This document shows positions 3-45,661 of a stretch of 64,000 nt of DNA, piece after piece (position 1 is the stretch's first letter; every line of letters begins with the position of its first letter). The stretch spans positions 8,648 through 72,647 of IMG/VR virus record IMGVR_UViG_3300011435_000001. One strand, written 5' to 3'. Below the pieces are notes generated by a model. That model made no database searches. It saw nothing but the letters and a program-made list of their open reading frames with translations, and was not told where the DNA came from. The position numbers and the translations under genes are program-made. The DNA is from a virus. Its lineage: Duplodnaviria; Caudoviricetes.

Positions 3-371
3 ATGTGGAATCAGGTTGTGGACGGGCAAATTCTCACGCCCACACAGCGCCAGCAGTTGAGGGGCGCGTCCGAGTCCGTTCTAAAGGCACACACGCCCAC
101 GGAACGCATCAAGCAATATATCGAACTGGAAGAGCGCGCCGGTCTCTCACCCGGCACCGTGGTCCCCGTCGGATACCGGGAGCTGGTCTCCGGTGCGGCG
201 CCTGCTCCTGCCGCTTCCGCTGCGGCTGTCTCCGTTTCCGTGTCTCGCCCGACAGTCGAACAGAAGGCTGCCGCTCCGACGTATCCGAGCCTCGCCGCCG
301 TTCCAGCCAACGTGCAGTTTTTCAAGGGAACTGACGGACAACTCCGTGTCAATCCAAACTTCAAACCATAA
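3..371 (+). CDS. Probable virion protein, likely 5'-truncated by the window edge
   Basis: Open frame from the window edge, Ala/Pro-rich; its stop overlaps the ATG of the giant ORF (TAATG). Confidence 0.6.
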   Translation: MWNQVVDGQILTPTQRQQLRGASESVLKAHTPTERIKQYIELEERAGLSPGTVVPVGYRELVSGAAPAPAASAAAVSVSVSRPTVEQKAAAPTYPSLAAVPANVQFFKGTDGQLRVNPNFKP

Positions 372-3300
372 TGGCAATTCCTACACTGCCGACGGTTCCC
401 AACGACCCGTATGCGGGCGCCCCTCTTGCTGAGAGCGCTCTCGCACAGCAAGCCATCACGCCCGGCGCTCCGCTCCTTCCTCAGTATCAGGACGTCTACC
501 TGAACAGGAACCAGCCTGCTCCTGAACCCGCGGTTGTGGAACCCGTCGAAGGCGAAGACCCTTACGCGGGCGCGACTGTAGTCGAGCCGGAGGCCGACCC
601 TTACGCGGGCGCAGCTCCCGTCACCGCCGTCTACGGCTACGACATGGAGAAGCTGAGCGCGACGCCTGTCGAGGTGCTGAAGAAAGACAAGACGGAATTC
701 AATCCGGTAGATTTCTACGCGAAGAACACGGACGCACTTCTAAGAGACCCCGAGGCGTTGAAGAAAGTGGAAGCCGTTTTCGAAGAGCGCGACAAAGAAC
801 GCATGACGCCCTTCGGGCTCGTCAAGGCTGCCGTTACCGCTCCTCTCAACGCAGTCCTACACCCAATCGAGACCGCTAAGAAAACTGTCGGGGTCGCGAA
901 GGCCGGAGCCGAGTTTGTCGGAACGCTTCTCTCGGGCGCGAAGCAAGTCGTGGCCACCGGGGCGGAAGTCGCCGGGAATTTAGCCGAAGGCGATTTGCCG
1001 GGAGCGGCCAAAGGAATTTCTGAAGCCATCGCGGCGGCGGACCTCGCGCAACAGCGCTGGGTGACCATCGTCACGGACAAAGTCGGTCCATCTTTTGGCG
1101 TCATCCCGCGCGGGAAAACTGCACGCGAACGTCTGGCCTTCGACGCGGACTTCAAGCGCGCGGAACTCAAGGCCGCGGAAGGCAACGGTCAGCTCGCGAG
1201 CGACCTCGGCGCATCTCAAGACGAGCTGCGGTCTCTGGGAGTGAATCTCGACCCGGGCGCAATCGAAAGGTTGTCCGTCATCGAGGACCCGCTTTTCTTG
1301 GTGCCCGTTGGTTCTGCAATCGGCGTCACTGGCCGGGCCGGAAAATTTTTACTGGGCAAGGCCACCTCTCCCGCCACAGCGGAAGCCTTTGCCAAGGGCA
1401 TCAACAGCGCGATGGAGCGAGCCGCCGCTTGGCCGATTGCGAAGACCGGCGCAGCAGTTGAAAAAGCCGGAGCGCTTGCGGAGAAAGCCCCCAAACTCTT
1501 GAAGGGCGGAGTAGCACAGGGCGCAACCGGCGGCATGATTGCGTCCGCGATGCACGGGAACTTCATCCCTCTCGCCACCGCACTCGCCGCCCCGACCGCT
1601 TTGAAGTATGGCGGAAAAGCCGTCGCTGCCGTTGGCCGCGGAGTGCAGGCCGCCGCACCGGCTGTTGGTCGCGTCGCTGCGGAAACCGCAAAGGGCGCCG
1701 GAGAAGGCGCAGTTTTGTCCATGCCGCTTTTCCTCGGCTCGAACGAAGAGGAACGCGAGGGCCTGCTCGGCATGATTGCTGGCTCGGGCTTTTTGCGAGG
1801 CAGTCTCGCTGCTACTGGCGTGGCCAAGGGACTCGCTGAACGCGGAGAGCGACTCGCGGGACGCTCGGTCCAGAACAAGCTGGCCGCAAAGATTTTCGAA
1901 GCCGTCGACCAAGGCCCCGTCAAGGACTCCAAGGCATACGGCACCGACACCGCGCTGGATGCGGCGCACCAGCAGCACTCTGCCACGCTGTCTCGCGGGG
2001 AACAGTCCCTGCTGAGCACGGCGCGCGAGTTCTTCCGCGATGCTGGCGTTGAGATTTACGGTCTGGACAAGAACACGTTCGTGGCCAACGTCCCGAACGT
2101 CGCCGGGGCATCCGCGGCAGAGGGCTTTTTCCTGTCCCGGGGCGAGAGGCTCAATCCGGACGGCACACGCAGCCCGGTTTTGCAAGTTCTGTTGAACAAG
2201 GACACCAACGGACTCGGACATGAACTCTACCACGCCTTCAAAAGTCTTGACCCACAAGGAGCTACAGCTCTCGAGGCCCACATCACCAAAACTTGGACCC
2301 CCGAGGAACAAGCTTGGCTCTCAGACTCTTACAACTCCGCAATCAACGGCGGAAAACCTAAGTCCCAGTGGACAGTGCATCTCAATGAAAAACAGATTCT
2401 CGAAGAGGCTGCCGCCGAAGTCTTTGGGCGTGTCGTCAACGCCACCGACCTCAGCGGCGTCCGTCCCAGCATCGTCAAGCGCGCCAGCACTTTTGCCTCC
2501 ACCATCCTCGAAAAGATGGGCCATCCGCTTGCAGGGAAGGCCCTTCCGCAAGGACCCGGTGTCTCAGCCCTTGGCGTCCGACCGGGAACCGCTGAAGTAA
2601 AGGTTTCGCAGGATTTCCTGACCGACATCACCCGCCGGGTGAAGGAAGGCTCTCTGGGCGTCCCCACGCCCGGTGCTCCGCTCGAGGTTGGGGCGGGCCC
2701 TGCTGCCATTTCTAGGCGCCCGAGTGCGCCCCAGCCGTCAGCACCCCCGAAAGCGGCTGAGGCTCCGGCTACCCCTAAGCCCGCTACGCCCGCACCCCTT
2801 CCAGAGGCTGCCGCGGAGGTTCCTGTGCCAGCCGCCCCCGCGGCCCCTACGGCAGAGAACATCCGGGTCACCCCGAAGGAACAGGCCGACTTTGCCGCCG
2901 AGCGGTCCAAGGTCACCAACGCCGACCAAGCCCTAGCCGCCGCCGTCAAAAGCGGGGACCCGGCGCAGGTCACCCACGTCACGGCCATCAACGACTCGAT
3001 GGCGAACGGTCACGCCGTCGAGGTCGTCCACAAGGGCGTCATCCGCGAAGGCGGACCGACCCCCGAGAAGCCTGTGGGACGCGGTGAACGACGCGCCGAG
3101 CAGGCCGAAGCCTACGTCGCCGAGGCAATGGGCGCGGTGCCCGACTCAGTGCGCGAACTGCACCAGAAGCTTTTCTTCGGCACGCGCTGGCTCAAGGCTG
3201 GCAAACAGCTCACGGCGCGGAGTCTGGACAAGGCCCTCGCGAACGTGAAGAACGCTGCGGACATGTCCGCTGGCAAAGTCACGCTGCCTTACGAGGTTGA

Positions 3301-6300
3301 CGCGGCGGGAAAGCTGACGGAGGCGGGCTGGGCGGAAGTTGTGCAGGACTTGAAAGACTATTGGTCCAACCAAGACCGCGGCTTCCGCGGGGACGGCAAA
3401 GCGCTGACTCCCGAAACCCGCACGCGCGACGTCGGGCAGAGCATTCCTCCCGAGGACCCGCGCGGACCTGCGGCGCTGATTTCCACGGAGCGCACGGACT
3501 TTCTGAATCTGGTGCAGGGGCTCAACATTCCGGAGACGGTGCGGGGCCAGAAGAAGGGCGTGATTCCCGGCAACGTCAAGGGACAGCTATTGGCGGAAGC
3601 ACAAGGCAAGAAGCCAGCGAAGCCCGCTGGTTTCACCGAAGCCGACGTGCAGGCGAAAACCTACAAGCCCATCGAGGGTGTAGGAGTGCGCAGCATCGCG
3701 GAAGTCAACCCTCTCCGAAACGATTTACGCGCCAAGGGAGCGCCCGTTGAAAAACTCATCGAAGTCACCGAGAACATCAACGTCAAGAATATCGAGTCCG
3801 TCACTCCGCGCCCCGACGTCACCGGGCGGGGCGGCTCCACGGACATCACGCGCGCGGGTTTCTCAGCGAGACTGGCGGAGAGGTTTCCGGTCAAGGAGCC
3901 CCAGAGCAGCTTTTCTCCCGCAGCAGACTTTGAGAAAAGTCTGGACCCGGTCAAGATGGCGGCAATCCGCACCAAGGGTGGACAGATTTTCACGGGCGCG
4001 TTTCACGGAGAGGCGTATCTGAACCTCGCGGACGCCGTTGGGCGCGGAGAGTTCAAGGAAAAGTTGCCGGAGGGATTCAAGAGTCTGACTGACCTGCTCG
4101 ACTCTGTGATGGGTGGAGAGAAGTTTGATTTCATCGAGGACGGCTTCGTGACCGAGAGCGGAAAATACCTGAACCGCAAAGAGGCCTTCGAGCACGGCAA
4201 GAAAATTGGCCAGCTCAAGGCGGGATACGGTGAGGCGACGCGCAAGGGGCAGTTCGAGAAGGAAGGCGTTCTCGAGTCTGACGAGTTCAACCGAGGGAAA
4301 AGTTTTTCTCCCGCCACCGAGAAGGGGAAAGAGTTCGCCAAGCAGGGCTACGAGTTCACCTTCGATGTGGACGAGCTGGGCGGACGACTGGTGCATGTCA
4401 ACAAAGACGGCCAGCGGGTCGGGTTGGTGGAGTCCGTCCCGGAAGGCGACAAAAAAGCTGAAGTGTCGATGGCCTTCGTGACCCCCGAAGAGCGGGGCAA
4501 GGGCTTGGCTGAGGCGATGTATCGCGAGCTGCTCACCAAGCTGAAGGCTGACGGAATTGAACTGGTCAGCGGGCTCGCGGTGTCACCAGAGCCAATCGCA
4601 ATTCGAAAGAAAATCTTCGGCAGCTTTGAGAGCCTCGCCACCAAGAAATCCGGTGAGAGCGTGGGACCTGTGTCCGTGGAGGAAGCACTCGCCGGTCTGA
4701 CCAAGCTCCGGAAGGGCTTGTTTCCCCCGTTCCCCGCCGTCGACGTGGTTAACAGAATCACGGAAGAGAGCAAGTTTTCCATCAGCCGGGAGAAAGAGAA
4801 AGAGGTCGCGCAGGGTCTATTTGATAGGGGGCTGTTGGCCCACGAGCCCGTAGGCCGACTGACCAAGTCGCCCGTGACGGGGGCATTGTGGATTTCACCC
4901 GACGGAGACCTTTTCCAAGCTGGGTCGATGGGTAACGGTCACGAGTCGTGGGCGATGGATTACATTGTCGGTGGGCTCACCGACAAACTAACGTCCCCGC
5001 TGGGGATTCTTCCGGGAGCCCGAAATGTCCTCGGAACCGCGCTGGCCAAACGAAAAGGATGGCTCCCGTCGTGGGTCGACCGCACCTCTTCGGCAGACTT
5101 GGGTATCTATATAGACGGGAAGCCGAACGCAAAACAGCGGGCGGCTCTTGAGGACTTCGCGTTTGACAGCAAGCTCGCGGTGCTGAACCGCTCGAACGAC
5201 AAGGTCGCCATCTCCAGCACCGAGGAGTTTCTGGAGAGGCGGAACTACGGCAAGGGGAAATTCTCCATCAGCGCGAGCCCAGAGGTCAAATCCTCCCTCG
5301 ACAAGGTCCTCGCCGGAGAACAAGCTGGCGAGACATTCACGTTGAACGGCAGACTTTTCAACCCGGGCGACCGCAAGCTGGACGTGGTCACGCTGGCCAG
5401 CGAAAACTTTCCTCCCGACAAAATCACGCCGGAGGCGATTCAAGCTTTCGTCGACAAGTATCCCAACCTCGCACGCAACCCCGACGTTGTCGCCGGAGTG
5501 TTCAAGCTGGACAATGGTCTCGTCTCGGCGGACCTGAACGTGGTGGTGGACCAAGCCAAGCGCAAGGAATCCCTCGCGTTTGCCAAGGAAAACAATCAGG
5601 AAGCCATCTTCGATTTAGTCAAGGGTGAGGTCATCAACACGGGCGGAACCGGAGAGTCGAGGCTCAAGAGCCCCAAAGACGTGGCGGTTGCCGCAGCACT
5701 CCTGTCAGGTGAATTCAGCGGTGGACCTCCCGTTCGCCGCAAGGAGCCAAAGACCGGCCCGGTAAAACAATTTCTCGGGTCCGCCAAAGAACTGTTTCAA
5801 GACCTGTCCGAAGACGTGACGGAATCTGCGAAAGATTTCTTCGAAGAGATTGCCGACTTCGGGCCGACAATCAAGGGGCGAGAAGCCGACCTCCAAAAGG
5901 AGCTTGCGGCAGCGATGGAGGCGAGGTATCCGAAACTGTCAGAGGTTCCGGAGCCGACGCTTACTCAGAAATCTGTCGAAGACGTGGACTGGAACGAGGT
6001 CCGACGGAAAATTCAGGACTTGCCGGAGGAAGAGTATCGGGCAATTTTCGGAGAACAGCCCCGGGTCACCGTGGAAGGCTTGGCGGAGTCGCTGATGCTG
6101 GACCCCGAGAAGGCTCCAAATTCTTATCCGGCGGAAGAGCGCTCGGTGCTTCGACAGGTTTTTCAGATGGGTCGAGAACAGCTACAGGACCGGGGAGAGT
6201 CTCCGACCTCATTCTCCGTTCGCCGTAAAGAACCGAAGCGCGACAAGCAAGGCCGACCGTTGACCGAAGAGGGCCTCGTGGATTACGAGAGGCTATACAA

Positions 6301-9300
6301 GGAGAAGGTCGCGGCGGAGAGGGCAGCGGAGGCGAAAGAGGCCAAGGCGAAGCCCTCCAAAAAATATCTCGTGCCCGCGGCTCAGAAACCGCCCAAGGAC
6401 AAGCCCACGGGTTGGATTCTCCCGGACGGAGAATACGTCCCGATTAACACAGAGTTTCACCAAGACTGGCTCGGGGAGAACCGAGAGCGAATCAACAAAG
6501 ACTTTGGGACCAACTTTGGCGAGTTCGTTTTTACCGAAGACCGTCAGCAGGCTCTCAACAAGGGCTTCGTTCGCGTCCGAGACCGGGGGGGAGACCTCAT
6601 CGTCGAGCTGCACAAGGACTTTTTCAAGGGGAAGACCAAGAACGCCGTCAAAGAACTTCTGGCGGAGCACGCGGGAGAGCTGAACCGAGTTTCTGTTTCT
6701 CTCCTGAGCGACGAGGGGCAAGTTGTGGACTCCGTTTCCGCACGCCTTTTCGACTCTAAGAATCCAAGAGATGCCGCCCTTTCGATGTTGGACAAGCTGA
6801 ACCCAACAGCAGGGGTTTCGAAGAAAGGCCCTTCTGCAATCCAACGCGCCCGAGCGATGGGCGGAGAGGAATCTTTCTCTCCCGCACTGGCTGGCTCCGA
6901 GCCCAGCCGGGCCTCGCGGGAAAAAGCCGCGAAGGCTTGGAAAGAGCTGGGCACTGAGTCTCCCTACTTCCAAAAGTGGTTTGGCAAGTCGGAGGTCGTG
7001 GACCCCTACGCCCCCGACCAGCCGCTGGTTGTCTATCACGGCACCACGCACGAGTTCACGGAGTTTACCAAGGAGCGCTCCAACATCGAAAACGATTTCG
7101 GTCAGGGCTTCTATTTTTCCAGCGAGCCACAAGAGGTCAGCAAGAACTACGCGGGCGAAGGGCCGGACTTGACCTCGAGAATCGAGCGACGCGCGGAAGA
7201 GCTTTACAACCAAGACGGGGAACTGACCACAGAGGGAGCGCGGGCGCAGGCAGTCAAAGAAGTCAAGGGCACGCACGAGGGCGCGGTCAAGCCTGCCTAC
7301 CTAGCCATCAAGCGGCCTTTCCGCGTCGGCGACAAAGTCAGCGGGCGGGGAGAAACTGTTCTAGAGATGAATGAGCGCGGCACAGGCACGCTTGACAAGT
7401 TTTTGGCGAACCTCGAGCGCAACGCCAACCGATACGACAACACCAAGGCGGCGGAAGGTGTGGCGGAGATTCAGGAGAAGGCGAATTATGAATCCATCGG
7501 AGCGAAAGAGCTGGTGGACGCCATTCGGGACAGCGAAAGCTTCAACGATGCGAACGACGAAAGAGGAGATTTTGCCACGACGGAGATGATTCGGCAGACC
7601 ATTGAGGACTCCGGGTTCGACGGCATCATCGACGAGACGGTGTCTGACAAGTTCCCGCACATGATTTCGCAGGGCGACACGATTCACTACATCGCCTTCA
7701 AGCCCGAGCAGATTAAATCCACGACGGGCAACGTCGGCACTTTCCGCAAGACTAATCCGGACATCCGTTTTTCGGCGAAACTCCCAACCGACAAGGAAGT
7801 GTCCGACGCACTCTTCGTGAACAAGCGCCCCTACGTCGGAGCGCATCGCGACCTCAAGCCCGGCACACCCGTCGGACTGCGCATCGACATTCCCGCCTTC
7901 ACGCAGCACGGCGTCTACGTCATCACGGTTCACGAGAAGGCAAGCGGTGGTAGCGTGGGCAAGCGCATCGGCCACGACAGCGTCGCTACCGTCGACAACC
8001 CGACATTTTTCAGCAAGGAATCCGGCGCCATCAAAATCAAAGAGGGCGCCCCAAAGTTTCCGATTGCGACTGTCGAGGGAGAATTTAATCCCGCACGCGA
8101 AGTGCCGAAGGCGGGCGGAGAGTGGACCGAGGTCGGCTTCAATCCTGTCAAGCACTCCTACTTCTACGAGAAGGGGACCGAGAAGCCTGTGGTGGGTGGC
8201 GAGCAGGCGGTGAGCGCGGGCAACAGCGTGTTCGTGAAGAACGCGGAGTTCGGAGACAAAAAAGATTTCGCTTTCAGCGCCGCCCCTAAAAAAGTCGAGC
8301 GCGAGACAGGCAAGGGCGGGCAGAAGTTTTTCCCGCAGGGCACGCCAGAGTTCAACGCCTACGCCGAGAACAAGATTGCCAAGAGCAAAGAATTTCCCGA
8401 GGCCTTCCCGCTCGAGTTCCGGAAGGATGAGAACGGAAATTATCTGGCGCAGTGGGACGGTGACGTGCTCCCTGCCGCGAAGCCATACAACCTGCTCAAG
8501 TCAGACCTCGCGGAGAAGTCCGGCTCGAAAGAAAAGTTCCTCGACGCTCTCGGAACGAAGTTGGTCAAGGAATACCGCGAAGCCAAGAAGAACCCGGAGA
8601 TTGCTGTCGGCGAGCACTGGTATTCCATCTTCCGCGAGAAGGTCGGCAAGGTCCTCGGTGACGACACGAAACTTTTCGCTGAGCTGTTGGGAGCGACGTC
8701 GCCTCAGCAGGCCGTCGGGCCGAACTTCAAGGACGCGCTCGGTGCTTACAACCAATTTAAGCGCGGGGCCTACGACGCGATGATTGAGAAGTATCGCGAA
8801 GGCAAAAAGAAATTCTTCGACGGGGACCTCGCGGAGTTCACAGAGGCCACGGGCAAGAAGGGCAAGAAAGCAGACTACGCTGCGTTCATGAGCTGGTGGC
8901 AGAACAAGCACAACCTGCTACCGACAAAAGCTGACGGTAAAAAGTTTGGGATGAACTCCCGCGCTGTGATGAAGGTCCTTGACCGCTCGTGGCTCGAGGG
9001 AGTGCAGGGACCAAAGACTCCGAACTTCACGGGCAACCTGTCCGGGACAACCTTCAAGGCCACGATTGACGTTTGGGCCATGCGCGCCCTGTCGCGACTC
9101 GCCGGAGAAGATTCCGGTAAGCCGTGGCGGGTTCAAGCCGCAAACGAGTCCGGCGTGTCGGACCCGGATTTCTATTTCGGGCAGGACGCCTTCCAGAAGG
9201 CAGCCGACGAAATCGGCATCAAGGCCGACGCACTCCAAGCGATTCTCTGGTTCGCAGAAAAAGACCGATGGGAGAAGAACGGCTGGACCGGGGCGGCAGG

Positions 9301-9466
9301 CAAGGCGAAGTCCGACTACAACACGCTTTTGGACCGCACGACGAAGACGCCTGAGGGCTTTCTGGACCTTGCAGACATTGCACCCGACGAGGTGAAACCC
9401 AAGGCCAAGAAGGGTGCTGCAAAAGTGGCAGCCCAGCTCGAACTGAGCGACATTAAGGGAAAATGA
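371..9466 (+). CDS. Giant (3031 aa) polyvalent internal-virion/ejection-like protein with zincin, GNAT, ADP-ribosyltransferase-like and DNA-glycosylase-like modules
   Basis: HELYH...EEAAAEVF zincin motif; GNAT-like VTPEERGKGLAEAMY; ART-like FQKWFGKS..PLVVYHGT..GFYFSS..EQIKS; position at the end of the virion module; coding-like codon bias throughout. Confidence 0.85.
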   Translation: MAIPTLPTVPNDPYAGAPLAESALAQQAITPGAPLLPQYQDVYLNRNQPAPEPAVVEPVEGEDPYAGATVVEPEADPYAGAAPVTAVYGYDMEKLSATPVEVLKKDKTEFNPVDFYAKNTDALLRDPEALKKVEAVFEERDKERMTPFGLVKAAVTAPLNAVLHPIETAKKTVGVAKAGAEFVGTLLSGAKQVVATGAEVAGNLAEGDLPGAAKGISEAIAAADLAQQRWVTIVTDKVGPSFGVIPRGKTARERLAFDADFKRAELKAAEGNGQLASDLGASQDELRSLGVNLDPGAIERLSVIEDPLFLVPVGSAIGVTGRAGKFLLGKATSPATAEAFAKGINSAMERAAAWPIAKTGAAVEKAGALAEKAPKLLKGGVAQGATGGMIASAMHGNFIPLATALAAPTALKYGGKAVAAVGRGVQAAAPAVGRVAAETAKGAGEGAVLSMPLFLGSNEEEREGLLGMIAGSGFLRGSLAATGVAKGLAERGERLAGRSVQNKLAAKIFEAVDQGPVKDSKAYGTDTALDAAHQQHSATLSRGEQSLLSTAREFFRDAGVEIYGLDKNTFVANVPNVAGASAAEGFFLSRGERLNPDGTRSPVLQVLLNKDTNGLGHELYHAFKSLDPQGATALEAHITKTWTPEEQAWLSDSYNSAINGGKPKSQWTVHLNEKQILEEAAAEVFGRVVNATDLSGVRPSIVKRASTFASTILEKMGHPLAGKALPQGPGVSALGVRPGTAEVKVSQDFLTDITRRVKEGSLGVPTPGAPLEVGAGPAAISRRPSAPQPSAPPKAAEAPATPKPATPAPLPEAAAEVPVPAAPAAPTAENIRVTPKEQADFAAERSKVTNADQALAAAVKSGDPAQVTHVTAINDSMANGHAVEVVHKGVIREGGPTPEKPVGRGERRAEQAEAYVAEAMGAVPDSVRELHQKLFFGTRWLKAGKQLTARSLDKALANVKNAADMSAGKVTLPYEVDAAGKLTEAGWAEVVQDLKDYWSNQDRGFRGDGKALTPETRTRDVGQSIPPEDPRGPAALISTERTDFLNLVQGLNIPETVRGQKKGVIPGNVKGQLLAEAQGKKPAKPAGFTEADVQAKTYKPIEGVGVRSIAEVNPLRNDLRAKGAPVEKLIEVTENINVKNIESVTPRPDVTGRGGSTDITRAGFSARLAERFPVKEPQSSFSPAADFEKSLDPVKMAAIRTKGGQIFTGAFHGEAYLNLADAVGRGEFKEKLPEGFKSLTDLLDSVMGGEKFDFIEDGFVTESGKYLNRKEAFEHGKKIGQLKAGYGEATRKGQFEKEGVLESDEFNRGKSFSPATEKGKEFAKQGYEFTFDVDELGGRLVHVNKDGQRVGLVESVPEGDKKAEVSMAFVTPEERGKGLAEAMYRELLTKLKADGIELVSGLAVSPEPIAIRKKIFGSFESLATKKSGESVGPVSVEEALAGLTKLRKGLFPPFPAVDVVNRITEESKFSISREKEKEVAQGLFDRGLLAHEPVGRLTKSPVTGALWISPDGDLFQAGSMGNGHESWAMDYIVGGLTDKLTSPLGILPGARNVLGTALAKRKGWLPSWVDRTSSADLGIYIDGKPNAKQRAALEDFAFDSKLAVLNRSNDKVAISSTEEFLERRNYGKGKFSISASPEVKSSLDKVLAGEQAGETFTLNGRLFNPGDRKLDVVTLASENFPPDKITPEAIQAFVDKYPNLARNPDVVAGVFKLDNGLVSADLNVVVDQAKRKESLAFAKENNQEAIFDLVKGEVINTGGTGESRLKSPKDVAVAAALLSGEFSGGPPVRRKEPKTGPVKQFLGSAKELFQDLSEDVTESAKDFFEEIADFGPTIKGREADLQKELAAAMEARYPKLSEVPEPTLTQKSVEDVDWNEVRRKIQDLPEEEYRAIFGEQPRVTVEGLAESLMLDPEKAPNSYPAEERSVLRQVFQMGREQLQDRGESPTSFSVRRKEPKRDKQGRPLTEEGLVDYERLYKEKVAAERAAEAKEAKAKPSKKYLVPAAQKPPKDKPTGWILPDGEYVPINTEFHQDWLGENRERINKDFGTNFGEFVFTEDRQQALNKGFVRVRDRGGDLIVELHKDFFKGKTKNAVKELLAEHAGELNRVSVSLLSDEGQVVDSVSARLFDSKNPRDAALSMLDKLNPTAGVSKKGPSAIQRARAMGGEESFSPALAGSEPSRASREKAAKAWKELGTESPYFQKWFGKSEVVDPYAPDQPLVVYHGTTHEFTEFTKERSNIENDFGQGFYFSSEPQEVSKNYAGEGPDLTSRIERRAEELYNQDGELTTEGARAQAVKEVKGTHEGAVKPAYLAIKRPFRVGDKVSGRGETVLEMNERGTGTLDKFLANLERNANRYDNTKAAEGVAEIQEKANYESIGAKELVDAIRDSESFNDANDERGDFATTEMIRQTIEDSGFDGIIDETVSDKFPHMISQGDTIHYIAFKPEQIKSTTGNVGTFRKTNPDIRFSAKLPTDKEVSDALFVNKRPYVGAHRDLKPGTPVGLRIDIPAFTQHGVYVITVHEKASGGSVGKRIGHDSVATVDNPTFFSKESGAIKIKEGAPKFPIATVEGEFNPAREVPKAGGEWTEVGFNPVKHSYFYEKGTEKPVVGGEQAVSAGNSVFVKNAEFGDKKDFAFSAAPKKVERETGKGGQKFFPQGTPEFNAYAENKIAKSKEFPEAFPLEFRKDENGNYLAQWDGDVLPAAKPYNLLKSDLAEKSGSKEKFLDALGTKLVKEYREAKKNPEIAVGEHWYSIFREKVGKVLGDDTKLFAELLGATSPQQAVGPNFKDALGAYNQFKRGAYDAMIEKYREGKKKFFDGDLAEFTEATGKKGKKADYAAFMSWWQNKHNLLPTKADGKKFGMNSRAVMKVLDRSWLEGVQGPKTPNFTGNLSGTTFKATIDVWAMRALSRLAGEDSGKPWRVQAANESGVSDPDFYFGQDAFQKAADEIGIKADALQAILWFAEKDRWEKNGWTGAAGKAKSDYNTLLDRTTKTPEGFLDLADIAPDEVKPKAKKGAAKVAAQLELSDIKGK

Positions 9467-15514: not shown

Positions 15515-15685
15515 TTATTTCTCCGCAGTCAAGCAGCGGTTGCACAGAATCCTCACACCGTCCGGAGCCAGCGTGGCAGCGTCTCCGACGGAGTCCCAGT
15601 TGAAAATCAGCCGTCGGCAACAGTCGCAGCTCTCGACGATTCCCGACCTGTCGAAGGACAGGACCGTTTTGTTGAATTCGTTCAT
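15515..15685 (-). CDS. Small Cys-rich protein (56 aa)
   Basis: MNEFNKTVLSF...CDCC...CNRC; not in the ORF track. Confidence 0.5.
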   Translation of the reverse strand: MNEFNKTVLSFDRSGIVESCDCCRRLIFNWDSVGDAATLAPDGVRILCNRCLTAEK

Positions 15686-15774
15686 ATCACTTTCTCCACA
15701 TTGACCACGACCAAGCCGCGAGCGGCAGGAACATCAGCACGACCAACAACATTGCGATTAGTATCATAAAAAAT

Positions 15775-15896
15775 TGGTGGGGCCCCTCTGGATTTTCACC
15801 ATCGTCTAGCCCCGAAGGGCACCCGAGTTACAATCCTCAGGCCGTCTCATCGCACTCAGTGTGTGCAATCGCGAGTGTTTCGCAGACCGGAACCCC
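15775..15896 (-). ncRNA. 122-nt tRNA-like RNA with an 8-bp acceptor stem, expanded D arm, long variable arm and encoded CCA
   Basis: GGGGTTCC/GGGGCCCC-A-CCA; CCTGAG/CTCGGG stem with loop GATTGTAA; GCCC-TTCG-GGGC arm; TGG-TGAAAAT-CCA T arm. Confidence 0.65.
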
Positions 15897-15904
15897 GTAA
15901 AAAT

Positions 15905-15977
15905 TGGTGGGTCGGGGAGGGCTTTAACCTCCGTTTCACCGTTAAAACCGGTGCGTCTTGAATGAAACGACCGACCC
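15905..15977 (-). tRNA. Atypical tRNA-Lys(TTT)
   Basis: GGGTCGG/CCGACCC-A-CCA; D stem GTTT/AGAC; CACCG-GTTTTAA-CGGTG; GGAGG-TTAAAGC-CCTCC; 73 nt. Confidence 0.75.
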
Positions 15978-15986
15978 ATATCGTTT

Positions 15987-16058
15987 GAAGGGGGCAGCCC
16001 ACCCCCGAGGTTACCGCCTCTATGCCCGGAGGTCCCGCTCCGGATGGCTGCGCCCTTC
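15987..16058 (-). ncRNA. Putative three-way-junction small RNA
   Basis: GAAGGGcGCAGCC/GGCTGCcCCCTTC closing stem with inner hairpins CCGGAG/CTCCGG and GAGG/CCTC; directly downstream of a promoter. Confidence 0.5.
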
Positions 16059-16071
16059 ACCCGACACCAGT

Positions 16072-16099
16072 AAAGTATCACAACCCGGCATCTTGTCAA
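16072..16099 (-). promoter_or_regulatory. Sigma70 promoter for the ncRNA/tRNA operon
   Basis: TTGACA-16 nt-TACTTT with TGn extension. Confidence 0.75.
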
Positions 16100-19405: not shown

Positions 19406-19896
19406 TGTAGTAAATGTAAGGCATCTGCACAGTTATCGTCAACTAAAGGAACGGTCGGGAAAAGCTTGGCGGCAGCCCGCATCATGAAATCTTTGTCTGC
19501 CGCGCCGCTGCCCGTGGCGAACTTCTTCAGCGTGGTGACCGGGCAGCAGTCCGTCTGAATGTGGTTGGCGGCGGCGAAGAGCCACACGACTGCGCGCAGG
19601 CTGGACCAGAGTTGCGTTTGCAGAGTGTATTTGGAGAACTGGACGTCCTCGAACACCATGAACTCGATGGCTTTTTCCGGCTCGTGGTGACCGAGGTTGT
19701 TTGCCCAAACCCCGGCTAGCTTTCGCTGAAGCGCAGGAATGCGAGGGTCGAGCCGACGGTCCAGACGCTGCTTCGCGGCCTTCTTACGCAGTTCCTCGCT
19801 GATGAGCGTCCACGTGCCTGCGGTAACCTTCCCGTCACGGGCACGGTAGGCCCAGCCACATTGCGAGCCAAGGTCGAGGGCGAGAAGGGTTTTCAC
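19372..19896 (-). CDS. RuvC-like Holliday junction resolvase
   Basis: LALDLG, VFEDV, LKKFATGSGAADK, DDNCADA acidic tetrad; GTG start. Confidence 0.85.
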   Translation of the reverse strand: MKTLLALDLGSQCGWAYRARDGKVTAGTWTLISEELRKKAAKQRLDRRLDPRIPALQRKLAGVWANNLGHHEPEKAIEFMVFEDVQFSKYTLQTQLWSSLRAVVWLFAAANHIQTDCCPVTTLKKFATGSGAADKDFMMRAAAKLFPTVPLVDDNCADALHLLQWAVTITARTK

Positions 19897-20288
19897 TTGA
19901 GAGACCCCGGCGGGACTTCCACCCACTTCCCGTCAGCGTCTAGGACCTCGACCTTCAAGAGCTCATCCTTGGTTTCGTTGATGACGGTTTGCTCTAGCGT
20001 CTCTTCCATCTCGATTTCATATTTTTTGAGCGCCAGCCAAAACCTCATTTTTGGCGTGGCCAGCAGTCGTTTGAATGCCGACGCCTTGTTGTCTGCTTGC
20101 GAACGGGAGTCGGAGGCCCGGCCCATCGCCCCGGACTCACGGTGAATAATCAGAACGCCTGAGGCCACCTTGTTCTTGGCCTGCCCGCCTTTGCCGCTGC
20201 CACAAAAGTAGGACACATCGAAATCTTTTCGCGTAGCGAGAGTGATTTTCTGGCGGGTGTCTTCTTTGGGCTGGTTGATGATTTTCAT
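19893..20288 (-). CDS. Stand-alone RF-1-domain (GGQ) peptidyl-tRNA hydrolase-like protein
   Basis: FCGSGKGGQAKNKVASGVLIIH...DSRSQADNKASAFKRL. Confidence 0.85.
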   Translation of the reverse strand: MKIINQPKEDTRQKITLATRKDFDVSYFCGSGKGGQAKNKVASGVLIIHRESGAMGRASDSRSQADNKASAFKRLLATPKMRFWLALKKYEIEMEETLEQTVINETKDELLKVEVLDADGKWVEVPPGSLK

Positions 20289-20992
20289 TTGGCGGCGTTC
20301 TTCTTGAAGCTCGCGCGCAGCTTCGCGATGATTTGGACGTGCGCTGCGTGGACTGCCTGACGCGAGACGCCCCGGGCCCGCGCAATGTCGGCCATGCTGA
20401 TTTTGTCGTTGTAGATTTTCCGGAGCAGCACCTTCTCTGCCGTGGTCAACTCGCAGCGGCACTTCTTGAGAGCCTCGAGGTTCAGGCCCAGCTCTTCCTT
20501 CTCCATCACGACTTCATCGGTGGAGGGCGCGGAGTCCACGGCGGGCGTGAACTTCTGCGGCGCGCGGGTGCTTTCGCCATCGTGCGTCGTGACCGTTTCC
20601 TCCGCGTATTGCGTGTAGGTCGGAAAAACATCCGCGTGCGAGGAGGGCTCGACGGTGTTCTTCGATTTCCACAGGCCCGCGAGCGCCCCCTTCAAAAAGG
20701 GCATCAGGTAGCGGGTGAAACGGTTGCCGCGCTCCGGGTCAAACCTGTCTATCGCATTCATCAGCGCAGAATTCGCGGCTGAAATCACTTCGTCGTCCGG
20801 AAGACGCCCACGATTTTGACGCCGGGCGAATCGGGCAGCGAATAGCAAATGGTTTCGAATGAGAAACTCCCGAGACTCAGCGTTGCCCTTTTTCGCTTTG
20901 GTGAAGAGTTCTTTTTCTTCTTCCGGCGTGGTGAGTTTGAATCGCAGGTCTTCATTTGCCCGGTAGTAGTTGCTGTTGGTCCCGTCGCTCAT
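20285..20992 (-). CDS. Sigma-70-family RNA polymerase sigma factor
   Basis: EEEKELF, IRNHL, LMNAIDRFDPERGNRFTRY (region 2), SMADIARARGVSRQAV (region 4 HTH). Confidence 0.88.
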   Translation of the reverse strand: MSDGTNSNYYRANEDLRFKLTTPEEEKELFTKAKKGNAESREFLIRNHLLFAARFARRQNRGRLPDDEVISAANSALMNAIDRFDPERGNRFTRYLMPFLKGALAGLWKSKNTVEPSSHADVFPTYTQYAEETVTTHDGESTRAPQKFTPAVDSAPSTDEVVMEKEELGLNLEALKKCRCELTTAEKVLLRKIYNDKISMADIARARGVSRQAVHAAHVQIIAKLRASFKKNAAK

Positions 20993-28668: not shown

Positions 28669-28841
28669 CTCGGGCCTTTCTCTTTCTCGGGCAACCGCGG
28701 AGCGCGGACCACGTCGCTCTTCAGGCCGCGCCGGTCGCATTCCGCGATATACGCTTCCGTCTCGGGACGACCGTCTCTCCACAGGGCCTTGGCGATTTCC
28801 CGACCGCTCGTCCCGACCTTGCCTCGTTTCTCTTTGCTCAT
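28665..28841 (-). CDS. Small basic hypothetical protein (58 aa)
   Basis: Overlaps both neighbours; not in the ORF track. Confidence 0.45.
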   Translation of the reverse strand: MSKEKRGKVGTSGREIAKALWRDGRPETEAYIAECDRRGLKSDVVRAPRLPEKEKGPR

Positions 28842-29773
28842 TGCACAGACTCTACTTCAGTGGTTGCCGGTTGTCCAATCATCGCGGACTGAGCGAGGGT
28901 GCCCTTGTAGAATTCGGGGAAGCCGCCGCACACTCCGCGCTTGATTTGCTTGATGAAGTGCTCGTAGAGGTGGTCGCGGATGAAGTCGCCCTCTTCGCGC
29001 TCGAGGTCCTTTTGCAGCTCGCACATGAGGGGGCCGATGTCCTCGGGCCCACCGACCAACGTGCCGTTGTCTCGCAGGTGCTGGACCGCCTTGCGCCAGC
29101 GCGCCTCTGTCTTAAGTTGCGTGACGAGATTCTGCACCACGTCATTCGTGCCGGGGTTCGCCTTCTTCCACTCGCCGCCGTGACGCTCCTTGAACTCGGG
29201 GCTCACGAACTTGCCGATGAGAATCTTTTTGTCGATTCCGAATCGGTTGTAGTTCTTGATGACGAACCCCTCCACCTTGCAGCCGCCGAGGATGGAGTCG
29301 TGGTCCAAGAAGTCCCGGATTTGGTCATCAGAGATTCCCGGCAACGCGCCGACGTAAAAAGTGGGGACAACCTCGAGGCCGAGTCTCTCAGCCTCCGCAC
29401 ACTTGTCGTCATATTGGAGATACGTCTCCGGCCCGGTCATCACGTCGAAAAGGATGATGTGTTGCTTCGGGATGCGCGCGTAGGCTTGCACGTTGTGCTT
29501 CGGCTTGCTCAGATACTCTCCGCGATACACCCAGCCGGGGCGCAAGTCGAGAGAGGCGGCGGTGTCGACAGCGTGGTTGAAAAGCTGCGGCACTGCACCG
29601 ATGTGAATGTCTTGTCCCTTGGAGCGGACTGAGAGCGAGCCGTCGTGGTTGCGGCACATGCTGAACTGTGACCCGTCAACTTTCTCTTCGACGACGACGG
29701 GGCCGCACAGCAGCTCGTTTAGGTAGCGGTGTCCGAGCGTGTAGATGCTCGGGTAGGATGATAAGTTGCTCAT
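28838..29773 (-). CDS. ATP-dependent RNA ligase (Rnl2-like)
   Basis: Motif I EKVDGSQF, GEY, ILFDV, EGFVIK, KFVSPEFKE. Confidence 0.85.
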   Translation of the reverse strand: MSNLSSYPSIYTLGHRYLNELLCGPVVVEEKVDGSQFSMCRNHDGSLSVRSKGQDIHIGAVPQLFNHAVDTAASLDLRPGWVYRGEYLSKPKHNVQAYARIPKQHIILFDVMTGPETYLQYDDKCAEAERLGLEVVPTFYVGALPGISDDQIRDFLDHDSILGGCKVEGFVIKNYNRFGIDKKILIGKFVSPEFKERHGGEWKKANPGTNDVVQNLVTQLKTEARWRKAVQHLRDNGTLVGGPEDIGPLMCELQKDLEREEGDFIRDHLYEHFIKQIKRGVCGGFPEFYKGTLAQSAMIGQPATTEVESVQ

Positions 29774-45174: not shown

Positions 45175-45197
45175 CAGGTGTAGTAGCTCTTTGAAAT

Positions 45198-45270
45198 TGC
45201 GGGGAGAATGGGATTCAAGTCAGTCTCATAAGCTGACCTCTGGTGGTTCGACTCCACCCCGCCGCAACCA
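45198..45270 (+). tRNA. tRNA with a CAT anticodon (elongator Met or Ile2), atypical
   Basis: TCAGT-CTCATAA-GCTGA; GGTGG-TTCGACT-CCACC; encoded ACCA; acceptor stem with one bulged G; very small D arm GAAT/ATTC. Confidence 0.85.
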
Positions 45271-45273
45271 ATT

Positions 45274-45577
45274 TGTCGGCGGAACCAGCAGCCTTTTCGG
45301 CAGCAATGGACTGCCGACAGAACAGTAGTCGAGACGGGGAGCGCGAAGTCGCGGACATCCCGCGCCCGAAAGGACGCATGGCCCCGAACCACCTCGGCAA
45401 TCGCAGACGGCTCCTGCGTAATGAGAGCCGTGCAATTTTGACGCAACTCCAGCCAAAAGAGCCGACGCATCGCAACGCGAAGACCGGCAAGCGGGGAAGG
45501 TTAAGGAAGCGTTGACGGAAGATGGCTCAGCCGAGGGCTCGCGAAACCTGCGATAGTGCGTCTCAAAAACCCCGCTT
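45274..45577 (+). ncRNA. Putative structured, pseudoknot-containing RNA downstream of the tRNA
   Basis: No credible ORF in 45271-45661; multi-stem hairpin at 45274-45319 and several 6-8 bp long-range helices (see findings). Confidence 0.45.
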
Positions 45578-45661
45578 ACTTTTGCACGCTTGATGTCAAG
45601 GGACCACGAGAGTCTCCAAAACTTTCCAGCCGGGCGCGATACCCGGAGCGTGTGCCAATTT

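Follow-up and report, generated by a model that had tools for sequence, protein, structure and literature searches.

A 122-nucleotide (nt) RNA gene resembling a transfer RNA (tRNA) lies on the minus strand of a 64,000-nt stretch of phage DNA, hereafter the window (positions 8,648 to 72,647 of IMG/VR virus record IMGVR_UViG_3300011435_000001). The record is 72,647 bp long with direct terminal repeats. The phage belongs to a soil/rhizosphere lineage without a close cultured relative, and its helicase is less than 35% identical to those of GenBank phages. Along the minus strand, a terminator-like site, a promoter, a hairpin leader, tRNA-Lys(UUU), an 8-base spacer and the 122-nt RNA follow one another (Table 1). 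On sequence evidence, the 122-nt element is a genuine, conserved phage RNA gene.

The minimum free energy (MFE) fold of the RNA (-50.5 kcal/mol, z -2.82; 0/200 shuffles as stable) is exactly the structure described in Table 1, and all helices listed in an initial annotation of this site are present in it. All 37 predicted pairs are standard in the window copy. The 8-bp acceptor stem GGGGUUCC/GGGGCCCC includes two G.U pairs and is followed by A and CCA. The first of the two hairpins in the D region (GCGA-AACAC-UCGC) is new relative to the initial annotation. The anticodon-like arm can also be counted with an extra G-C pair, which gives a 6-bp stem (7 bp with the basal G.U) and an 8-nt loop, GAUUGUAA. 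In the T arm, the core UGG-UGAAAAU-CCA is flanked by tandem G.A/A.G. The RNA thus departs from an ordinary tRNA in several parts: a 7-nt anticodon loop with U33 and a purine at position 37 is lacking, as are a canonical D arm with G18 G19 and a T-Psi-C T loop. The D loop is replaced by the two hairpins, neither of which has GG in its loop, and the T loop reads UGAAAAU.

Standard tools overlook the gene, as the initial annotation had expected. ARAGORN calls no tRNA or transfer-messenger RNA (tmRNA) at the 122-nt RNA, its only match being a tRNA-Met elsewhere, and it is still negative on five versions edited in silico, deletion of the D inserts included. No Rfam 15 family, RF00005 included, matches the RNA, either with the whole window searched at gathering thresholds or with the region searched at E<=10; the latter search gave no tmRNA, Y RNA (YrlA), ribozyme or intron match.

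Table 1. Features of the RNA locus in the window and homologues of the 122-nt RNA
Feature	Position	Strand	Evidence
Intrinsic-terminator-like site upstream of the promoter	16256-16233	minus	terminator scan
Sigma-70-type promoter: -35 TTGACA (16099-16094), 16-nt spacer, extended -10 TGaTACTTT (16080-16072)	16072-16099	minus	read in sequence
Structured leader hairpin of ~90 nt, promoter to tRNA-Lys	15978-16067	minus	fold
tRNA-Lys(UUU), encoded CCA, atypical elbow (D loop without GG; T loop UUAAAGC)	15905-15977	minus	Rfam RF00005, 42.7 bits, E 1.3e-7
122-nt RNA derived from tRNA-Tyr (sequence-based assignment), whole gene including encoded CCA	15775-15896	minus	fold, homologues and anticodon register
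Acceptor stem, 5' strand (RNA positions 1-8)	15889-15896	minus	pairs with 15779-15786
Acceptor stem, 3' strand (15779-15786), discriminator A (15778) and encoded CCA (15775-15777)	15775-15786	minus	
D region: 4-bp stem GUCU/AGAC around two hairpins	15844-15887	minus	MFE fold
D-region hairpin 1: GCGA-AACAC-UCGC, 4-bp stem, loop AACAC	15871-15883	minus	MFE fold
D-region hairpin 2: 7-bp AUUGCAC/GUGCGAU, loop ACACUGA	15849-15869	minus	MFE fold
Anticodon-like arm: G26.U44, 5-bp stem, 10-nt loop GGAUUGUAAC; GUA at 15829-15831	15821-15842	minus	fold and register
Long variable arm GCCC-UUCG-GGGC (4-bp stem, UUCG loop)	15809-15820	minus	fold
T arm: five stacked pairs (G.A, A.G, U-A, G-C, G-C), T loop UGAAAAU	15787-15803	minus	fold
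AUUUUUU trailer of the 122-nt RNA	15768-15774	minus	read in sequence
Homologue, 123 nt, 304-kb phage	L370:7189-7311		91.4 bits, E 2e-18, single-sequence model
Homologue, 113 nt, 236-kb phage	L229:774-886		35.1 bits, single-sequence model
Homologue, 121 nt, 221-kb phage	L369:5886-6006		18.4 bits, single-sequence model
Homologue, 92 nt, D inserts absent, 40-kb contig	L367:10038-10129		27 bits, single-sequence model

Homologues, covariation and anticodon register

Homologues were searched for with a single-sequence covariance model on loci collected by a T-loop pattern and a second pattern; the E-values come from a shortened model calibration and are rough. Homologues were found in four unrelated phage contigs, three of them from jumbo phages, where the RNA is located within a tRNA array, in the orientation of the array and with a CCA-AUUU trailer. 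Each genome has one copy of the RNA, and the neighbouring genes differ in all five phages. A model built from the five sequences scores its members at 57-108 bits, a range that is partly by construction because the same sequences were used to build it. Owing to the exact seeding patterns, the conservation of GGUGAAAAUCC in all members, and of CCCCACCA at the acceptor end in four, is also by construction. Further searches added no member. A pattern linking the anticodon loop to the T loop (variable base U or N) gave, besides L370, chance matches only, in terminators and coding DNA; a twin ACACU-loop pattern found L370 only, and a relaxed T-loop pattern found no additional sequence. Applied to the helicase surroundings of related phages (28 + 80 loci), the single-sequence model gave no match. 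In blastn searches against GenBank phages, the window region had no match and the homologues matched through their neighbouring canonical tRNAs only.

The initial annotation had named a lack of covariation among homologues as a ground for refutation; the helices do covary. In the five-sequence alignment, 91% of cells form standard pairs, compared with 71.6% in shuffles (0/500 reach the observed value); double changes occur in 23 of the 37 pairs, and slid controls pair at 32-50%. Since this alignment was fitted to the model, unfitted alignments were also used. MAFFT with RNAalifold on four members recovered the acceptor, hairpin 2, the anticodon stem and a 5-bp T stem. In an unfitted MAFFT alignment of the window RNA with L370, which contains one gap, L370 preserves 36 of the 39 pairs; double compensatory changes number 10, and slid controls give 0-2. 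The two RNAs share 70% identity overall, 81% in unpaired and 62% in paired columns. The double compensatory changes include one in the D stem, one in hairpin 1, five in hairpin 2 and two in the variable arm, which is GUUC-UACG-GAAC in L370. Sequences conserved between the two comprise the loops AACAC (hairpin 1) and ACACU (hairpin 2), both identical, GAU(U/G)GUAA in the anticodon-like loop, CUAGA after the variable arm, and the T loop UGAAAAU. Because homologues in other phages preserve the helices through compensatory changes, the 122-nt structure is not a chance fold. The alignments show, at the level of sequence, that the RNA structure is maintained by selection in unrelated phages.

The comparison also refines the acceptor/T branch. 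Where the window RNA has G.A/A.G in the T stem, L370 has A-U pairs, in support of a 5-bp T stem, and L229 reads A-U there as well. Acceptor pairs 1-4 are G-C in 4/5 members, partly by construction of the search pattern, and the fifth has C.C at pair 4. The window copy stacks 8 + 5 acceptor/T pairs, two of them G.A, but the eighth pair (C8-G) is C.C in L370 and the other members read 7/5. The 8-bp acceptor noted in the initial annotation is therefore correct for the window copy and is not a trait of the family.

With numbering as in ordinary tRNAs (G26.U44, then a 5-bp stem 27-31/39-43), GUA lies exactly two bases before position 39 in 5/5 members. Counting from the 5' side instead shifts the triplet by three bases in three members. 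Two loop bases precede GUA in L229 and L367, whereas the window RNA, L370 and L369 have five there, so that the loop is 7 or 10 nt long across members (10 nt in the window RNA, or 8 if the extra G-C pair is counted as stem). Immediately 5' of GUA the five members have U, G, A, C and A, and two of them carry C or G at position 37 (C in L229). All five have G1-C72, A73, G26.U44 and a long variable arm, which in the 122-nt RNA resembles the phage tRNA-Tyr arm GCC-UUCG-GGC. In the second tier of the five-sequence model, 9 of 11 canonical-length matches are phage class II tRNA-Tyr(GUA) genes. As the next-best matches of the model are phage tRNA-Tyr genes, the family is, judging from these sequences, derived from a bacterial-type class II tRNA-Tyr. 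A tRNA-Tyr whose anticodon loop is normal is also present in each of the three jumbo phages (the loop is CUGUAAA in the two that were read); the phage of the window has no other Tyr tRNA.

The RNA operon and a T-loop class in phages

The promoter in front of the two RNA genes was not flagged by an automated promoter scan because TACTTT matches 3/6 bases of TATAAT. The leader hairpin is highly stable (MFE -49.7 kcal/mol, z -3.25; 0/200 shuffles as stable) and has no counterpart in Rfam; the acceptor-like GUCGGG of tRNA-Lys recurs at its 5' end. The tRNA-Lys(UUU) cloverleaf has an MFE z of -3.73, and ARAGORN misses this gene as well. An identical 13-mer, CCCACCAAUUUUU (CCCACCA-AUUUUU), terminates both tRNA-Lys and the 122-nt RNA. 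CCA-AUUU trailers also occur after the other tRNA and tRNA-like genes of this phage and in many phage tRNA arrays, and the AUUUUUU trailer may be a processing site or a weak terminator. The tRNA-Lys of the window is not notably similar to the tRNA-Lys genes adjoining the homologues, and transfer of a Lys plus Tyr-like module is therefore unsupported. Right after the AUUUUUU trailer, an ATG opens a strongly hydrophobic 26-codon open reading frame (ORF), MILIAMLLVVLMFLPLAAWSWSMWRK, at 15686-15767 (minus strand), with no obvious ribosome-binding site; a 56-aa ORF comes after it at 15515-15685.

The locus varies between close relatives. The closest relative (L082, helicase 86% identical) has an equivalent promoter in the same place (TTGACA-16 nt-TGgTAAAAT, L082:6109-6137) that heads three tRNA-like genes other than those of the window (L082:6109-6550), and in another close relative the slot is empty, with no RNA genes there. 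Because the contents of the slot differ between close relatives, it is a fast-changing accessory locus for tRNA-type RNAs. The three genes of L082 are a 188-nt RNA with good acceptor, D arm and T arm and ~110 extra bases mid-molecule, a 104-nt tRNA-like RNA, and a 99-nt class-II-type tRNA (RF00005, 43 bits) with an odd anticodon loop.

Elsewhere in the window, the phage encodes an RNA ligase (PF09414, 58.1 bits; 28838-29773, minus strand) and an RF-1/GGQ-domain protein (PF00472, 49.6 bits; 19893-20462, minus strand), and these proteins could have roles in translation rescue or tRNA repair. A second RNA cluster is found behind a TTGACA promoter at 45190-45660 (plus strand). It contains a tRNA-Met(CAU) (45196-45266) that scores just 23.4 bits with RF00005, a GC-rich stretch of ~300 nt (45274-45577), and a 74-nt tRNA-like unit (45584-45657) with a 7-bp acceptor, the T arm CCGGG-CGCGAUA-CCCGG and the end GCCA-AUUUA, without a canonical anticodon loop. 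A single ORF of 3031 aa, for which an N4-type virion RNA polymerase was an initial guess, occupies 371-9466 (plus strand).

The T loop UGAAAAU of the 122-nt RNA recurs in a tRNA cluster of a relative, where a 111-nt irregular tRNA shares it together with a CCA-AUUUU end. Following this lead, IMG/VR was scanned with the pattern GGTGAAAATCC, 9-14 nt, CCAATTT. The scan returned 31 distinct sites in viral contigs, 22 of them at the canonical 11-nt spacing expected for a 7/5 tRNA. Many of the 31 sites can be closed by a 7-bp acceptor helix, and about half of the closable ones are oversized (100-182 nt). In a bacterial genome collection searched with the same pattern, the spacing was nearly flat and few sites were closable, as chance predicts. 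Given this difference, phage tRNA and tRNA-like genes in which the T loop UGAAAAU is combined with a CCA-AUUU trailer form a class, which looks from these scans like a broad and unannotated one. The 122-nt RNA has the GGUGAAAAUCC T arm, encoded CCA and AUUU of this class but at 12-nt spacing. The combination of T loop and trailer offers a simple handle for finding further oversized phage tRNA-like genes.

Several individual genes were observed in the course of these scans. Oversized UGAAAAU/CCA-AUUU genes of 100-182 nt are present in unrelated phages (L204-L245), including L215:3567-3691(-), L216:4382-4496(-), L210, L222 and L237. The 125-nt pair L215/L245 has a hairpin within the D loop and compensatory changes in the central helix. 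A more distant relative of the phage carries three tandem genes at L199:400-690 (G014:C1:30199-30488): a 91-nt tRNA with a long anticodon-arm insert, a normal tRNA-Met, and a 111-nt UGAAAAU tRNA-like RNA with a long variable-region hairpin. Beyond chance matches, the bacterial collection yielded a few phage-like tRNA arrays; one, on an Acidobacteria metagenome-assembled genome contig (L301:2300-3257), combines canonical tRNAs with one 101-nt tRNA-like RNA that has the T loop UGAAAAU and an anticodon arm sealed as a 13-bp hairpin with a 3-nt loop. In the tRNA array of a 304-kb phage (G019; L380:2161-13501), ARAGORN reports several tRNAs of 86-99 nt for Lys, Asn, Glu, Cys and Pro, whose tRNAs are normally short. 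A tRNA-Tyr at ~7293-7383, its D arm reduced, escapes ARAGORN, and the phage seems to be rich in irregular tRNAs.

Possible roles of the RNA

A strong host-type promoter would drive a common transcript of tRNA-Lys(UUU) and the 122-nt RNA. Because the RNA retains the minihelix of acceptor and T arm, A73 and an encoded CCA, tRNA-processing enzymes (RNase P and 3' enzymes) probably excise it. It is also probably tyrosylated by tyrosyl-tRNA synthetase (TyrRS), because the known bacterial determinants of this enzyme are kept: G1-C72, A73, G34-U35-A36 in the 3' register and the long variable arm. Three parts are rebuilt: the D loop into two hairpins, the T loop into UGAAAAU, and the 5' half of the anticodon loop by three additional bases. 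By analogy with described phage tRNAs, we tentatively favour, at somewhat less than even confidence, an RNA that acts as a tRNA-Tyr mimic or decoy and decodes poorly or not at all. The unconserved base before GUA, C or G at position 37 in two members, the loop of 7 or 10 nt, the replaced D loop, the changed T loop and the jumbo phages' own tRNA-Tyr favour such a mimic over a normal decoder. The initial annotation had proposed an unusual tRNA or a mimic or decoy against anticodon nucleases, and this is still the best class of explanation.

A more specific version is possible, if doubtful: a tRNA-Tyr mimic, charged or merely recognised and unused by the ribosome, that traps or outcompetes a tRNA-Tyr nuclease via the rebuilt loop and twin hairpins and spreads as a mobile RNA gene of diverse phages. 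In the favoured reading, the RNA would take part in the conflict over host tRNA-Tyr by serving an anticodon nuclease specific for tRNA-Tyr, for example of the PtuAB type, as decoy or competing ligand, and would act beside the co-transcribed tRNA-Lys, whose isoacceptor is targeted by PrrC, PARIS and Schlafen nucleases. Phages are known to overexpress tRNA-Tyr from a strong promoter and thereby beat retron-Eco7 PtuAB (PMC11555353). tRNA-Lys is likewise a nuclease target: a bacterial Schlafen nuclease cleaves tRNA-Lys(UUU) (PMC13056530), and T5 tRNA-Lys counters PARIS (PMC11464382). It has been proposed that phage tRNAs escape nucleases through anticodon-loop changes (PMC10264068).

Several points weigh against the mimic or decoy. 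The family has just five members, all seeded by exact T-loop patterns. The model and other searches found the RNA in none of 15 whole related genomes of the phage lineage (absent from 15/15), and it is therefore an accessory and not a core gene. The decoy role is proposed by analogy, and the literature consulted contained no tRNA-like decoy for an anticodon nuclease. In addition, a working, nuclease-resistant decoder would be equally consistent with GUA being held strictly in 3' register, with an intact acceptor/T branch and with this phage having no canonical tRNA-Tyr.

Such a decoder would be a working, tyrosine-charged tRNA-Tyr that reads UAY and whose rebuilt elbow and anticodon-loop 5' side resist a host anticodon nuclease, a 'resistant replacement tRNA'; we consider this doubtful. 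GUA register, G1-C72, A73 and variable arm are retained in 5/5 members, the acceptor/T branch read by EF-Tu is intact and the phage has no other Tyr tRNA, but position 33 is unconserved and two members have C37 or G37. Triplet decoding with an 8-nt loop does occur in yeast mitochondrial tRNA-Thr(UAG), whereas a tRNA with three nucleotides inserted on the 5' side of its anticodon is not known to us. Against retron-Eco7, infection is rescued by phage tRNA-Tyr (PMC11555353), and nuclease evasion by anticodon-loop changes has been proposed for phage tRNAs (PMC10264068). The replacement of the D loop by two hairpins argues in the other direction, as a D-loop insertion destabilised E. coli tRNA-Tyr (PMC5397188), and three jumbo phages already have a tRNA-Tyr with a normal anticodon loop beside the RNA. 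A tRNA-shaped RNA outside both decoding and defence seems unlikely. It could be an amino-acid donor for non-ribosomal transfer, a titrator of TyrRS or of a modifying enzyme, or a module for transcript processing or stability. Although the AACAC and ACACU loops kept between unrelated phages suggest a specific partner, no partner gene is linked, and each of the five phages has different neighbours around the RNA. Charging without use in translation has been described for irregular soil tRNAs (PMC5389517). The window RNA is in the 5' part of a transcript running into small ORFs, but in three phages it is found in plain tRNA arrays and not at mRNA fronts.

The anticodon was first left ambiguous between GUA (Tyr) and UGU (Thr). 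The GUA half of that call is borne out by its register in 5/5 members, while UGU fits only the two closest members. A Thr decoder (extra G, then A32 U33 [U/G]GU A37 A38), or a quadruplet decoder reading with UUGU/UGGU and +1 frameshifting, is very improbable. The two closest members differ in the loop only by U or G at the would-be wobble position, UGU and GGU are both Thr anticodons, and U33 and A37 A38 are present; this reading is nevertheless inapplicable to the other three members, the long variable arm is foreign to tRNA-Thr, and the nearest relatives of the family model are tRNA-Tyr genes. No gene requiring a frameshift was seen, and none was searched for. Even less credible is a decaying tRNA pseudogene, or a precursor from which the D-region insert is spliced out, the latter having been suggested in the initial annotation. 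Rejection by tRNA finders and absence of the RNA from close relatives of the phage would fit either, but 37/37 predicted pairs are standard in the window copy, helices are kept by compensatory change, and unrelated phages preserve both hairpins together with their loop sequences. No intron or ribozyme match was obtained, and to our knowledge no D-loop splicing is known in bacteria. The covariation in the alignments largely refutes the pseudogene or precursor reading. Compared with these alternatives, the tRNA-Tyr mimic or decoy remains our tentative choice.

Comparison with known systems

The closest known relatives of the 122-nt RNA are bacterial class II tRNA-Tyr(GUA) and its phage copies, with which it shares G1-C72, A73, the GUA register, G26.U44 and the long variable arm. 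With phage tRNA-Tyr it also has in common the GGGG/CCCC acceptor start, the encoded CCA and the location in tRNA arrays. Unlike class II tRNA-Tyr, it has an anticodon loop of 10 nt (8 nt in the alternative count), enlarged on the 5' side by three bases, carries two hairpins where the D loop would be, and reads UGAAAAU, not UUCRANY, in the T loop; RF00005 and ARAGORN do not detect it. Our literature search, with incomplete coverage, found no account of a tRNA-Tyr derivative that combines two hairpins in the D loop with a +3 anticodon loop, nor of a UGAAAAU T-loop class; for both, novelty is not proven.

In soil bacteria and phages, irregular tRNAs and allo-tRNAs depart from the canonical cloverleaf by extra loops or five-stem junctions (PMC5389517; PMC7609411). 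Soil or phage origin, long variable arms, polycistronic arrangement and a non-canonical cloverleaf are features in common with the 122-nt RNA. However, the defining features of allo-tRNAs are a branch of 8/4 or 9/3, a tetraloop on a long (~6-bp) D stem, mostly G73 or U73, and Ser identity (PMC5389517). By these descriptions the 122-nt RNA is set apart by A73 and by a 4-bp D stem that encloses two hairpins; its acceptor/T branch gives a mixed picture, with 8 + 5 stacked pairs in the window copy but an eighth pair unconserved in the family. In contrast to irregular tRNAs, its extra hairpins are inside the D stem and not between the acceptor and D stems. G73 or U73 and the UCA anticodon of tRNA-Sec are absent, all members having A73 and GUA, and tRNA-Tyr ancestry explains the long variable arm without a link to either group. 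The link to tRNA-Sec or allo-tRNAs drawn in the initial annotation is therefore not supported.

An E. coli tRNA-Tyr carrying the Spinach aptamer is comparable in combining a tRNA-Tyr body with a large extra folded domain (PMC5397188). The aptamer was not stably expressed when placed in the D loop, and the engineered tRNA was stable and active only with the insertion in the variable loop (PMC5397188). The natural family, in contrast, has its insertions in the D loop, with the T loop changed as well. If the RNA does decode, it would stretch what the ribosome is known to tolerate, with two hairpins for a D loop and a 10-nt anticodon loop, and would be of direct use in tRNA engineering. Should it be a decoy, it would be an RNA counter-defence of a type not seen before. 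In both cases, standard annotation overlooks the gene.

Phage tRNAs with described anti-defence roles provide the functional parallel, namely tRNA-Tyr of T5 and SP15 against retron-Eco7 PtuAB (PMC11555353), tRNA-Lys of T5 against PARIS (PMC11464382) and anticodon-loop variants (PMC10264068). The shared features are a strong promoter, a pair of Lys and Tyr type, an altered anticodon loop and a phage RNA ligase. Those tRNAs are normal-sized, decoding molecules with point changes, and none has extra hairpins or an enlarged loop. Whereas described anti-defence phage tRNAs are ordinary tRNAs with point changes, here a tRNA-Tyr body appears to have been rebuilt at three sites with all of the TyrRS marks kept.

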